From a virus (lineage: Duplodnaviria > Heunggongvirae > Uroviricota > Caudoviricetes), in the IMG/VR virus record IMGVR_UViG_2778261246_000004, positions 1 through 44,468 of that record: a DNA stretch of 44,468 nucleotides. One strand, 5' to 3'. Each line of letters starts with the position of its first letter. Positions within the stretch are counted from its first letter, which is position 1. Below the pieces are notes generated by a model. That model was not told the origin of the DNA and searched no databases. It saw nothing but the letters and a program-made list of their open reading frames with translations. Of the stretch, positions 36,962 through 39,727 are shown in pieces. The position numbers and the translations under genes were made by a program.

Positions 36962-37387
36962 TCAATGTACTGCCACAGCATTTCCTGCCGGGCCACCACG
37001 GTTCATCTGATTGAAACCGGCGATTGCCACTGCGACAAAATCATCAGCGTCTCTCACCAGTCGCTCCCGCGTCTCCACCAGCTCCCGAAAATAAGCTGAA
37101 CTGTGGCTGCGCATTCTGGCCACCAGCAAAGGTGGCATTGCCTTTTCGATCGCTGGTAACAACGCCTGAATTTTTTCAACTGCATCAGGGGTGTCTTTCT
37201 CTACCCAGCGGAAAATTTTCTGGGTATTGCGAGCCAGGGCTTCCGGATGGCTGTCGTCATACAGTTCTGGGAACGTCATACCCAGTTCAAAATAAGCCCT
37301 GGTTATTTCAGCTGCCGGAACTTTTTCACCGTCCGGATGCGCCCAGGCATTCATCGCCATGCGGATGTGTTCATGCTTGATTTTCAT
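36962..37387 (-). CDS. CII-like / YdaT-like early regulator
   Basis: 141-aa ORF immediately downstream of the Cro-like gene; resemblance to Rac YdaT from memory. Confidence 0.45.
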   Translation of the reverse strand: MKIKHEHIRMAMNAWAHPDGEKVPAAEITRAYFELGMTFPELYDDSHPEALARNTQKIFRWVEKDTPDAVEKIQALLPAIEKAMPPLLVARMRSHSSAYFRELVETRERLVRDADDFVAVAIAGFNQMNRGGPAGNAVAVH

Positions 37388-37652
37388 GAATCAAGCTCCT
37401 AGAAAGTGGTTGTGTTAACGTTTTGGTATCTTCCAGCTCGGGCCAAATATTCATCCAATCAAAAGGCCTTAGTTGCTGACGTGTAACTTCACCATTACTG
37501 GCTCGCTCAATAAGGACACATAACGATGCCCCTAACACTTGACCTTTACTCAATGCCTTTCTTAGATAACCGATGCTGGTACCACACTCGCATGCAAACA
37601 TACGCTGTTCATCTGACGAAAGAGAATTGAGAAATATTCTTAATTCTTCCAT
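37371..37652 (-). CDS. Cro-like HTH regulator (YdaS/DicC analogue)
   Basis: 93-aa ORF divergent from the repressor gene; HTH-like segment EQRMFACECGTSIGYLRKAL. Confidence 0.55.
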   Translation of the reverse strand: MEELRIFLNSLSSDEQRMFACECGTSIGYLRKALSKGQVLGASLCVLIERASNGEVTRQQLRPFDWMNIWPELEDTKTLTQPLSRSLIHENQA

Positions 37653-37679
37653 AGCTACTCCTTAGTAAACACAGTAAAG

Positions 37680-37735
37680 AATACCCACAGGTAAACAAAA
37701 GTCAATACCCACAGGTTGTTTACCTTGCGGTAATC
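37680..37735. promoter_or_regulatory. Immunity-region operators: three copies of a TACC-N4-5-GGTA half-palindrome between divergent Cro-like and repressor genes
   Basis: ATACCCACAGGTA (x2) and TTACCTTGCGGTAA seen directly. Confidence 0.5.
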
Positions 37736-37752
37736 GCATCTATTATTTACCT

Positions 37753-38172
37753 ATGGACAAATATGAATTTAGACGACAGCAACTCATCAAAATTCGTGAT
37801 GAGAAATGCGATGGTAAAGCGGTTAACGTGGCCAGAAAGATCGGGCGCGAGCCTTCTTATGTATCAAGAATGTTGTACCCAGAGGGGAAAAAGGGAAAAA
37901 AACGGATCGCTGATGATATGGTGGAGATTATCGAAGAGTCCTTTGGGTTACCCCGGGGATGGATGGATGGTATCGTTTCATCATCAACGAACACAGCCTC
38001 CAGTTATGAAACAAGGGTTCTAACGCCACGACAACGTATTTTTTTAGATCTCTTAGACGAACTGCCAGAAAGTGAAGCGGATAACTTATTAAAAACTCTT
38101 GAAGAGAAAAAACAGTATTACAATATGATCTACGAAGAAATCCGTAAAAAGAAAGCACAAAACGCATCATAG
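37753..38172 (+). CDS. Prophage repressor, DicA/RacR-like HTH protein
   Basis: 139 aa; HTH VNVARKIGREPSYVSRML; C-terminus L.P...FLDLLDELPESEAD resembles DicA (memory). Confidence 0.65.
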   Translation: MDKYEFRRQQLIKIRDEKCDGKAVNVARKIGREPSYVSRMLYPEGKKGKKRIADDMVEIIEESFGLPRGWMDGIVSSSTNTASSYETRVLTPRQRIFLDLLDELPESEADNLLKTLEEKKQYYNMIYEEIRKKKAQNAS

Positions 38173-38212
38173 CTCACCAAACAACTAGTCACCAGTTAAG
38201 ACACCGCAAAAA

Positions 38213-38253
38213 GTTACCCACGGGTATTTACTTTTTAAATACCTATGGGTATC
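38213..38253. promoter_or_regulatory. Two further palindromic operators (TTACCCACGGGTA, ATACCTATGGGTAT) between the repressor gene and ydfA, overlapping a candidate promoter
   Basis: Seen directly; same TACC...GGTA motif as the upstream set. Confidence 0.5.
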
Positions 38254-38437
38254 CTTCTTTTCATACCAACCCACCCCGCCCCACAGAATGCAGGGCAATA
38301 CTTCGAGTTACCAGGCAGTGGTCAGGGGTTAAGTAGCCAGCCCGAGGCGTAAGAACATGACGGCAGGGTTCAACTTTAATAACTATGCAGCAGGTTTTTG
38401 TTCCGCTACCCCGGCGTTAAGGGGAAATGAGGTCAGC

Positions 38438-38593
38438 ATGGATACTATCGATCTTGGCAACAACGAATCTCTGGTGTACGGCGTGTTTCCCAACCAGGAC
38501 GGCACATTCACCGCGATGACGTATACCAAAAGCAAAACGTTTAAAACCGAAAATGGTGCCCGTCGCTGGCTGGAAAGAAACTCAGGTGAGTGA
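38438..38593 (+). CDS. ydfA: YdfA-like small protein (51 aa)
   Basis: ATG 38438 with GAGG RBS; same size and position as Qin ydfA. Confidence 0.5.
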   Translation: MDTIDLGNNESLVYGVFPNQDGTFTAMTYTKSKTFKTENGARRWLERNSGE

Positions 38594-38594
38594 T

Positions 38595-38723
38595 ATGGAT
38601 TTCGACACAATCATGGAAAAGGCTTACGAAGAATACTTCGAAGGTCTTGCCGAAGGCGAAGAAGCTCTCAGCTTCAACGAATTTAAACAGGCGCTTTCCA
38701 GTTCGGCAAAATCTAACGGCTGA
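38595..38723 (+). CDS. ydfB: YdfB-like small protein (42 aa)
   Basis: ATG 1 nt after ydfA stop; MDFDTIMEKAYEEYFEGLAEGEEALSFNEFKQALSSSAKSNG; not in ORF track (short). Confidence 0.5.
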   Translation: MDFDTIMEKAYEEYFEGLAEGEEALSFNEFKQALSSSAKSNG

Positions 38724-38752
38724 TAAGCGAAGCAGCACCGCGAGGAATCAGT

Positions 38753-38971
38753 ATGCAGAAACGAGAACCCGTCATCATCGCGCCAGACTATACCGATGAT
38801 GAACTTTATGAGTGGATGCGCCAGAAAATTAATGCAGCGCAGGATCTGAAATGGGCCAATGAAGCCAGGGCTAAGCAGGCTGAAAATCTGTCCGCTCTGG
38901 AGCAGGATATCACCAGGCTGGAAAAAGCAGCGGCATTAAGCATTGCCAGAATGATTACATACCCGCGTTAA
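38753..38971 (+). CDS. ydfC: YdfC-like small protein (72 aa)
   Basis: 72-aa ORF with GAGGAA RBS, preceding DicF. Confidence 0.5.
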   Translation: MQKREPVIIAPDYTDDELYEWMRQKINAAQDLKWANEARAKQAENLSALEQDITRLEKAAALSIARMITYPR

Positions 38972-39311
38972 TAGCTAACCAACGAAGCTAAGGTTGGTAA
39001 TTAAGGAGTTCTCCACGGGTGAGGTGGAGTGCGTGCGCCGGACACGGGTGAGCATCCGGCACTGACAGTTTACTGAAAGGATATTTCCATGAAAAGTCAG
39101 ACCATAACGCGAAAGCGCACGGCGAGGTAGCTGGTTCATAGATAGCCTGTCGTTAAATTTTCGTCGACCGTGCGCTTCCGGTTGTGGCACTCCGCGAAAT
39201 GGCGCGGCGGTAAGTATGGCGGGGTTATTCCTTCCCCGTTGAGGACACCGGGTTGTCAGGTTGACCATACGCTTAAGTGACAACCCCGCTGCAACGCCCT
39301 CTGTTATCAAT

Positions 39312-39364
39312 TTTCTGGTGACGTTTGGCGGTATCAGTTTTACTCCGTGACTGCTCTGCCGCCC
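39312..39364 (+). ncRNA. dicF: DicF small regulatory RNA
   Basis: UUUCUGGUGACGUUUGGCGGUAUCAGUUUUACUCCGUGACUGCUCUGCCGCCC plus U5 matches remembered E. coli DicF; lies between ydfC-like and dicB as in Qin. Confidence 0.8.
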
Positions 39365-39538
39365 TTTTTAAAGTGAATTTTGTGATGCGGTGAATGCGGC
39401 TAAGCGCACGCGGAACAGTTAAAACCAAAAACAGTGTTATGGGTGGATTCTCTGTATCCGGCGTTAATTGTTAACTGGTTAACGTCACCTGGAGGCACCA
39501 GGCACCGCATCACAAAATTCATTGTTGAGGACGCGATA

Positions 39539-39727
39539 ATGGAAACGTTATTACCAAACGTTAATACGTCTGAAGGTTGTTTTGAAATTGGTGTCACTAT
39601 CAGTAACCCTGTATTTACTGAAGATGCCATTAACAAGAGAAAACACGAACGGGAGTTACTAAATAAAATATGCATTCTTTCAATGCTGGCCCGTTTACGT
39701 CCGATACAAAAAGGATGCTGGCAATGA
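39539..39727 (+). CDS. dicB: Cell division inhibitor DicB
   Basis: 62-aa product M.TLLPNVNTSEGCFEIGVTISNPVFTEDAINKRK.ERELLNKICI.SMLARLR matches DicB; RBS GAGG. Confidence 0.85.
   Translation: METLLPNVNTSEGCFEIGVTISNPVFTEDAINKRKHERELLNKICILSMLARLRPIQKGCWQ

Follow-up and report, generated by a model that had tools for sequence, protein, structure and literature searches.

In phage lambda, the operators OR1 and OR2 lie 24 bp apart from centre to centre, and OR2 is located about 42 bp upstream of the leaderless repressor start. The OR/OL layout has already been documented experimentally for lambda and likewise for Qin and CP-933P (PMC10448788, PMC8630535). In Qin, operators have been described in the intergenic regions on both sides of dicA; DicA represses dicBp and dicC, and deletion of dicA raises dicBp activity 22-fold (PMC10448788). 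In CP-933P, PaaR2 and YdaS act on OR and on PL933P, and both paaR2 and lambda cI provide precedents for a leaderless repressor mRNA (PMC8630535). For Rac, where the design is likewise documented by experiment, the proteins RacR, YdaS and YdaT have been described as analogues of CI, Cro and CII (PMC11879457).

The locus described here belongs to a prophage inserted beside tRNA-Ser/mtfA and was analysed within a window of 44,468 bases, which is the whole stretch of DNA. We consider it very probable, at roughly 85%, that the locus constitutes a lambdoid immunity region within an E. coli prophage, in which a 139-aa CI-type repressor would act on operators of the form TACC-N4-GGTA at a PR-like and a PL-like promoter. 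The genes and gene-associated features of this region are the following:

36962-37387, minus strand: gene of a YdaT-family, CII-like regulator, second in the PR-like operon (Pfam YdaT_toxin, 7.4e-10; PHROG 163, CII-like activator, 7.4e-46)
37371-37652, minus strand: Cro-like gene of the YdaS family, 93 aa (Pfam YdaS, weak; PHROG 35, transcriptional repressor)
37753-38172, plus strand: repressor gene, 139 aa (PHROG 5736, transcriptional regulator, 4.4e-70)
38256-38437, plus strand: conserved untranslated leader of the ydfA operon (alignment to Rac, Tritos and Qin)
38438-39727, plus strand: the putatively controlled operon ydfABC-dicF-dicB
38438-38593, plus strand: ydfA (Pfam DUF1391, 1.7e-28)
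38595-38723, plus strand: ydfB (RefSeq name at a 99.8%-identical locus)
38753-38971, plus strand: ydfC (RefSeq name at the same 99.8%-identical locus)
39313-39364, plus strand: dicF (Rfam DicF, 76.7 bits against a gathering score of 48)
39539-39727, plus strand: dicB (Pfam DicB, 1.7e-37)

The order ydfA-ydfB-ydfC-dicF-dicB downstream of the repressor gene identifies the dicBF operon. Its leader is about 90% identical to the leaders of Rac and phage Tritos and largely deleted in Qin; as an RNA (38262-38440), its single-sequence fold was no better than that of shuffled sequences, and no Rfam family was found in it. PHROG scans of 20 neighbouring open reading frames identified replication, Ren-like, Q-like, holin and endolysin genes and no recognisable antirepressor, and a tblastn search did not find a homologue of a Rem-type antirepressor in the window. 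A nearly identical locus occurs in E. coli NRZ14408 (99.8% identity over window positions 37300-38500), where it adjoins an integrase gene, tRNA-Ser and mtfA, and where the 139-aa product is listed in RefSeq as a hypothetical protein. Among the complete E. coli genomes searched (5,426), 822 carry no less than 80% of this 1.2-kb segment, with about 99.8% identity among the best matches listed. None of the complete E. coli genomes covers at least 80% of window positions 23000-44468, indicating that the prophage is a mosaic.

The first-pass annotation had described three copies of one palindromic motif between the divergent Cro-like and repressor genes and two further palindromes between the repressor gene and ydfA, and both sets were recovered. 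Exact matches to TACCNNNNGGTA occurred four times within the whole window, where 0.26 were expected, and a count of at least four was reached in none of 100 dinucleotide shuffles. All four lie within 570 bp, in the two intergenic regions flanking the repressor gene: the matches at 37682 and 37721 fall between the divergent genes, those at 38215 and 38240 between the repressor gene and ydfA. When one mismatch was allowed, the third copy between the divergent genes was added at 37706; of the 12 such matches in the window (8.1 expected), the seven besides the operator sites were scattered and at chance level. An unbiased repeat search arrived at the same palindrome family. In addition, the whole window was scanned with a weight matrix built from related loci (see below). 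The top ranks were taken by operator sites with scores of 23.5, 23.3, 22.2 and 16.0, followed by a score of 11.0 at 37748-37759, and the best score elsewhere was 8.5. By both the weight matrix and the one-mismatch search, the 44-kb window contains no extra operator sites. The sites and the promoters to which they belong are arranged as follows:

37678-37705, minus strand: PR-like promoter with -35 TTGACT (37705-37700), a 16-nt spacer and -10 TATTCT (37683-37678)
37682-37693: OR1, TACCCACAGGTA, in the spacer of PR and overlapping its -10 hexamer by 2 nt (exact match and weight matrix)
37706-37717: OR2, TACCCACAGGTT, with a weak right half, abutting the -35 hexamer of PR (one-mismatch match)
37719-37746, plus strand: PRM-like promoter with -35 TTTACC, a 16-nt spacer and -10 TATTAT (promoter scan)
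37721-37732: OR3, TACCTTGCGGTA, between the -35 and -10 hexamers of the repressor promoter (exact match and weight matrix)
37748-37759: a doubtful fourth OR site, TACCTATGGACA, over the start codon (weight matrix)
38215-38226: OL2, TACCCACGGGTA, abutting the -35 hexamer of the PL-like promoter (exact match and weight matrix)
38227-38255, plus strand: PL-like promoter, the analogue of dicBp, with -35 TTTACT, a 17-nt spacer and -10 TATCCT (38250-38255)
38240-38251: OL1, TACCTATGGGTA, in the spacer of PL and overlapping its -10 hexamer by 2 nt (exact match and weight matrix)

OR1, OR2 and OR3 are contained in the 100-bp intergenic region between the Cro-like and the repressor gene, with 24 bp between OR1 and OR2 and 15 bp between OR2 and OR3, and the centre of OR2 is located at about -41.5 relative to the repressor ATG. 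The OL sites are 25 bp apart and start 43 bp past the repressor stop codon. The candidate fourth OR site is probably a chance match, since no related locus has its left half, and the counterpart of its right half simply belongs to the coding sequence.

The PR-like promoter was called by the promoter scan with 9 of 12 matches, and its position is kept across the related loci. The -10 hexamer of the PRM-like promoter ends 6 nt before the repressor ATG, and no Shine-Dalgarno sequence precedes this ATG in the window or in the related loci, so that the repressor mRNA is probably leaderless; nearly all related loci have a TAnnnT hexamer 6 to 7 nt ahead of the ATG. The hexamers of the PL-like promoter are weak (8 of 12 matches) and were missed by the scan. 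This promoter was placed by alignment with Rac and Qin, by its conserved position in the related loci and by its similarity to the PR cassette. As the scan missed PL and its calls in the region were not above chance (2 against 1.7 expected from shuffles), the promoter assignments rest on these comparisons. The PR and PL cassettes are inverted near-copies of each other, a relationship also recovered by the unbiased repeat search. In both, the distal operator is followed by the -35 hexamer, the proximal operator and the -10 hexamer. Of the 56 bases aligned between them, 33 agree, mostly within operators and hexamers. The PR-like cassette faces the Cro-like gene, and the PL/dicBp-like cassette faces ydfABC-dicF-dicB.

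A scan of one genome per species identified 21 loci encoding the N-terminal domain of the repressor. The comparison set consisted of 20 loci, 19 with this domain at no less than 66% identity and phage mEp043, spanning about 10 genera (Edwardsiella, Klebsiella, Brenneria, Pantoea, Leclercia, Yersinia, Atlantibacter, Arsenophonus and Escherichia as well as a Hydrogenophilaceae metagenome-assembled genome). Within the 103 kb of these loci, 66 exact sites were found where 1.6 were expected, and 64 of them belong to a fixed OR triplet or to an OL doublet with a spacing of about 25 bp. More than half of the sites (34) fall in the interval from -80 to -25 relative to the repressor start, with -72, -47 and -32 as the typical positions; a further 30 form downstream doublets, spaced by 24-26 bp and located at +70 to +1863, and the remaining two are single downstream sites. 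The doublet is conserved in 18 of the 20 loci, and the other two have a single site. OR1 is located at -71 to -75 in the loci with at least 66% domain identity and OR3 at -32/-33 in most of the set, and the GGTT deviation of OR2 at -47/-48 recurs in most of the loci that also carry a Cro homologue. The TACC and GGTA arms are invariant across the related loci and the central 4 bp vary, while the -35 and -10 hexamers hold their position relative to the operator sites.

This conservation bears directly on the explanation that the repeats are chance palindromes or a functionless sequence relic, which we regard as extremely improbable. It would be in keeping with a prophage that may be defective and with the number of promoter-like matches in the region, which is at chance level. 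However, neither the excess of exact sites in the window and their clustering nor the fixed positions, invariant arms and free centres in the related loci would be expected of such repeats, and the module is retained in the 822 E. coli genomes with hardly any divergence among the best matches listed.

The related loci also indicate which protein the sites belong to. Five Klebsiella loci encode the N-terminal domain and possess OR1 and the OL motif but have no Cro homologue; OR3 is found in three of the five, and OR2 is absent. Most of the motif-bearing loci, including mEp043, have no YdaT homologue. Phage Tritos shares the ydfA-dicB backbone with the window, a 99%-identical YdaT and a repressor C-terminal domain of 72% identity, and differs in the N-terminal domain and in Cro; its immunity region contains no TACC sites and has TGWAC-N5-GTWCA instead, with three copies at OR and two at OL, the latter spaced by 24 bp. 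These contrasts show that the motif tracks the N-terminal domain of the repressor and not its C-terminal domain, not YdaT and not strictly Cro, which co-varies with the N-terminal domain in most loci. It is therefore very unlikely that recognition of the sites is confined to the Cro-like (YdaS-family) or the CII-like (YdaT) protein and that the 139-aa protein is not a DNA-binding repressor. Such an assignment could draw on the annotation of the 139-aa protein as hypothetical and its lack of a Pfam domain, on the Cro homologue, which co-occurs with the motif in most loci, and on YdaT proteins, whose binding to inverted repeats has been described for the intergenic region of Rac (PMC11879457). 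Yet it would have to account for the Cro-less Klebsiella loci, for the loci that keep the motif without YdaT and for Tritos, and also for an N-terminal domain that is modelled as a helix-turn-helix and forms the N-terminus of hundreds of LexA/S24-type phage repressors.

The 139-aa protein, our candidate for the repressor, consists of a helix-turn-helix N-terminal domain (residues 1-72), a linker (77-87) and a C-terminal domain (89-138), and the PHROG 5736 match spans its full length. Residues 1-72 share 65% identity with the N-terminal part of cI from the lambdoid phage mEp043. In database searches, this domain mostly fronts LexA/S24-type repressors of 221-242 aa from Enterobacterales. The C-terminal domain is about 72% identical to that of Tritos CI, and residues 89-134, the only part aligned by BLASTP, are 33% identical to the C-terminus of DicA. 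No Pfam model matched the protein, including any helix-turn-helix model for the N-terminal domain and the S24 peptidase domain (PF00717) found in self-cleaving repressors, and no homology to RacR was found. The description of the protein as a DicA-like repressor in the first-pass annotation therefore holds for the C-terminal 50 or so residues and does not extend to the DNA-binding domain, which is of the mEp043 cI type. Membership of the DicA family was rejected, as the protein scored 23.9 bits against a cut-off of 101 bits with the NCBIfam DicA model (NF007257/PRK09706), to which residues 86-136 alone were matched; the operator is also unrelated to that of DicA. By sequence comparison, the repressor is a chimera that joins a DNA-binding domain of the mEp043 cI type to a DicA-type tail and lacks a domain for self-cleavage.

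An AlphaFold2 model of the protein (mean pLDDT 85) comprises a four-helix N-terminal domain, a disordered linker at residues 77-87 and, C-terminally, a pair of helices of which one is long, so that a repressor with a helix-turn-helix and a C-terminal oligomerisation domain is predicted. A sequence search against solved structures returned only insignificant matches (E of 0.076 or worse). Foldseek matched the model to Rep of Salmonella phage SPC32H, to restriction-modification controller proteins, to HigA and to lambda repressor, which are folds of the phage-repressor and Xre types, with high probabilities and weak E-values. When both domains of the model are considered, SPC32H Rep ranked first (PDB 5D50, the Rep-Ant complex; E 2e-3, probability 1.0), with an rmsd that is high because the orientation of the domains in the model is undefined. 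Rep is likewise a short repressor without self-cleavage and is inactivated by an antirepressor. Its sequence identity to the window protein is only 15-16%, and no antirepressor was identified in the window.

The locus was then compared with Qin, Rac and CP-933P. The spacer between the repressor gene and ydfA aligns with the dicA-ydfA spacer of Qin and the racR-ydaG spacer of Rac, revealing a common leader and a common promoter position (TTGACA-17-TATAGT in Rac, TTGACC-17-TAATCT in Qin), and at the shared operator positions the window, Qin and Rac each have a palindrome of their own. In Qin, two copies of TTAGY-N4-RCTAA lie between dicC and dicA, and a third covers the -10 hexamer of dicBp (at 2369, 2419 and 2915 of the Qin locus compared). 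DicA-type operators were not found in the window, where TACC-N4-GGTA takes the corresponding positions. The two loci share the downstream operon of ydfA, ydfB, ydfC, dicF and dicB, a repressor-specific proximal operator over the -10 hexamer of the downstream promoter and short repressors that are homologous in the C-terminal domain and lack a cleavage site. They differ in the N-terminal domain of the repressor, which is unrelated to that of DicA, in the operator sequence, in the Cro, which in the window is of the YdaS type and followed by YdaT, whereas Qin has DicC/YdfX, and in the Rem antirepressor, of which the window has no homologue. The proposal that one putative repressor controls both the lytic promoter and ydfABC-dicF-dicB, as DicA does in Qin, is supported by the promoter-operator geometry, the related loci and the alignment with Qin and Rac. 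The layout indeed matches that of Qin; it is, however, the general lambdoid OR/OL arrangement and not special to Qin.

In Rac, TAGGC-N3-GCCTA is present in three to four copies between racR and ydaS and as a doublet with 25-bp spacing downstream of racR; a version with a 4-bp spacer had no matches, the correct spacer being 3 bp. Both Rac and CP-933P resemble the window in that the CI analogue diverges from an operon of ydaS and ydaT, the analogues of Cro and CII, and in that operators are located both between the divergent genes and, past the repressor operon, at a PL-like promoter. The repressor proteins and the operators differ, with a GTTTAGTAA-type sequence in CP-933P and TAGGC-N3-GCCTA in Rac, and in CP-933P a toxin-antitoxin pair lies behind the repressor gene.

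By its predicted DNA recognition, the window falls into the mEp043-type immunity specificity group. In mEp043, TACC-N4-GGTA occurs three times between cro and cI, spaced by 25 and 15 bp, and twice upstream of N, 25 bp apart. The N-terminal domain of cI and Cro (73% identity to the Cro-like protein of the window) are homologous, the operator consensus is the same, and both loci have three OR and two OL sites with almost the same spacing (24/15 bp in the window and 25/15 bp in mEp043 at OR, 25 bp in both at OL). From these sequence features, the window prophage and mEp043 are probably homoimmune or nearly so. They differ in that mEp043 cI has 228 aa and an S24/LexA-type C-terminal domain, that an accessory gene lies between cI and OL and that PL drives the N antiterminator operon. 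A literature search found no published description of the mEp043 operators. The operator consensus TACC-N4-GGTA is a previously undescribed sequence within a known design.

We observed directly that the sites exist and are enriched, how they are arranged, and that they are inherited together with the N-terminal domain; from this we infer operator binding, cooperativity, activation and leaderless transcription as follows. TACC-N4-GGTA, an inverted repeat of 12 bp, would be recognised by the N-terminal helix-turn-helix, with the repressor presumably dimerising through its helical C-terminal domain. By occupying OR2 and OR1, the repressor may control the PR-like promoter, which is predicted to drive the Cro-like, CII-like (YdaT) and replication genes, and by occupying OL2 and OL1 the PL-like promoter, predicted to drive ydfABC-dicF-dicB. 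RNA polymerase would be excluded since repressor at the proximal site would extend over the spacer and two bases into the -10 hexamer. The distal site abuts the -35 hexamer, and binding to the two sites is probably cooperative. OR2 may in addition activate the repressor's own promoter, because it is centred about 42 bp upstream of the start as is OR2 of lambda, and OR3, which lies inside this promoter, would mediate autorepression. The Cro-like protein is expected to act at the same sites and to flip the switch. As the repressor is devoid of an S24 self-cleavage domain, induction probably does not occur by RecA-stimulated cleavage.

The arrangement is that of lambda in several respects: the repressor and cro-like genes diverge, with three operators overlapping the hexamers of the back-to-back PR-like and PRM-like promoters, and a second operator set covers an early-left promoter beyond the repressor gene, oriented in the same direction as this gene. 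The distance of 24 bp between OR1 and OR2 and the position of OR2 upstream of a probably leaderless start also correspond. In contrast to lambda, the operators are 12-bp TACC-N4-GGTA palindromes instead of 17-bp sites, OL has two sites only (OL1-3 in lambda), the repressor has no S24 autocleavage domain, no rex genes lie between the repressor gene and OL, and the left operon is ydfABC-dicF-dicB in place of N. In addition, OR2 and OR3 are only 15 bp apart from centre to centre, unlike in lambda, and cooperativity and activation of the lambda type are therefore assumptions.

The OL doublet may be read differently, namely as sequence that acts mainly in the RNA: an intrinsic terminator hairpin that ends the repressor transcript before ydfA, or, in a softer version, does so in addition to binding the repressor. 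The segment 38215-38251 folds into an imperfect stem of 16 bp, with an RNA folding energy of -20.1 kcal/mol (z-score -3.45) that was matched by none of 200 shuffles, and is followed by UCCUUCUUUUC, a U-rich run. There is no other obvious terminator in the 42 bp between the repressor stop codon and OL2, whereas Qin and Rac, judged by eye, have a separate small hairpin with a T-run just after dicA and racR, and read-through into dicB would do harm. However, the hairpin is partly automatic, as any two adjacent copies of one palindrome can pair. It was not called by a terminator scan, and in 19 related loci the doublet yields only -5 to -17 kcal/mol with variable tails, so that the arms are conserved and a strong hairpin is not. 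The position of the doublet is also fixed relative to the -35 and -10 hexamers, and the same cassette occurs at PR, where no terminator is needed. We therefore consider this reading unlikely. As the strength of the hairpin is not conserved and the palindrome copies would pair in any case, termination is at most a possible secondary role of sites that we take to be primarily operators for the putative repressor.

The regulatory logic of this immunity region is textbook lambdoid biology, and the design was already known; what is new is the operator consensus and the domain make-up of a common, unannotated repressor. Together, the window, mEp043, Tritos, Qin and Rac form a natural domain-swap series, in which the operator goes with the N-terminal domain of the repressor, while the promoter scaffold and the repressor C-terminal domain have been exchanged independently. 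For a protein that is hypothetical in RefSeq and not recognised by Pfam, the analysis provides a putative function and a precise predicted DNA target, and it defines the predicted promoter and operators that would keep the DicF small RNA and the division inhibitor DicB silent in these strains. A more far-reaching proposal combines several elements: the specificity of an SOS-inducible phage family (mEp043-type cI) grafted onto a non-cleavable DicA-type tail, immunity that is SOS-proof, derepression by Cro, and a terminator formed by OL1/OL2. That all of these hold jointly appears unlikely. If true, the resident repressor, present in about 15% of complete E. coli genomes, would make its host immune to mEp043-type phages in an SOS-proof manner, Cro brought in by a phage of this type could derepress the resident dicF/dicB cell-division inhibitors, and OL1/OL2 may also insulate dicB from the repressor transcript as an intrinsic terminator.

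The start of the repressor transcript was examined in the window at positions 37741-37755, where the PRM-like promoter that serves the repressor gene has its -10 hexamer ending only 6 nt short of the ATG and where no Shine-Dalgarno sequence precedes that ATG. A TAnnnT hexamer was likewise found 6-7 nt 5' of the repressor ATG in nearly all related loci, that is, loci elsewhere encoding the N-terminal domain of the repressor. This arrangement suggests that the repressor mRNA is leaderless and that this is a conserved trait.

Residues 1-72 of the repressor (window 37753-37970) form a common N-terminus of LexA/S24-type phage repressors across Enterobacterales. No Pfam model covers this DNA-binding domain, and the short form of the repressor is labeled hypothetical in RefSeq; the domain is an annotation gap. 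In addition, two database proteins, P0015 and P0018, begin in the +1 frame of the repressor gene (window 37763-38023) and then run into the repressor sequence; both resemble what a frameshift or a wrong gene call would make of the repressor, as may have happened in some E. coli genomes.

Five related loci from Klebsiella (L008, L011-L014), considered roughly from position -75 to -25 relative to the repressor ATG, retained the N-terminal domain, the predicted operator OR1 and the OL sites, and three of the five also retained OR3. All five lacked both a Cro homologue and OR2, a joint absence suggesting that the weak OR2 site may be linked to the presence of this Cro type.

Downstream of the repressor gene, the predicted operators OL2 and OL1 together form an RNA hairpin with a 16-bp imperfect stem, at -20 kcal/mol and a z-score of -3.45, followed on the 3' side by UCCUUCUUUUC (hairpin and tail within window 38215-38262). 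The hairpin is a possible intrinsic terminator ending the repressor transcript; in the related loci its strength varied from -5 to -17 kcal/mol. Beyond it lies the following feature:

38256-38437, leader of ~180 nt between the PL-like promoter and ydfA

The racR-ydaG spacer of the E. coli prophage Rac and phage Tritos each share ~90% identity with this leader, and in the prophage Qin most of it is deleted, although the operators directly 5' are wholly different in each. The ATG at 38357 lies in the ydfA frame and gives a 78-aa ORF, the start used in the Tritos annotation. As the Rac counterpart of this ATG opens an ORF of just 17 codons, the leader is probably non-coding. Single-sequence folding of the leader RNA showed no gain over shuffles, and a comparison with Rfam returned no match. 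Further downstream, in the stretch that joins dicF to the beginning of dicB (window 39362-39571), the small RNA family STnc100 scored 39.1 bits (E 2.8e-6), below its Rfam gathering score of 47.

No complete E. coli genome matched more than ~71% of the 21 kb at 23000-44468 in one place, and the 1.2-kb immunity core was found in 822 complete E. coli genomes. Judged from these sequence matches, the prophage is a mosaic, and its immunity module travels separately.
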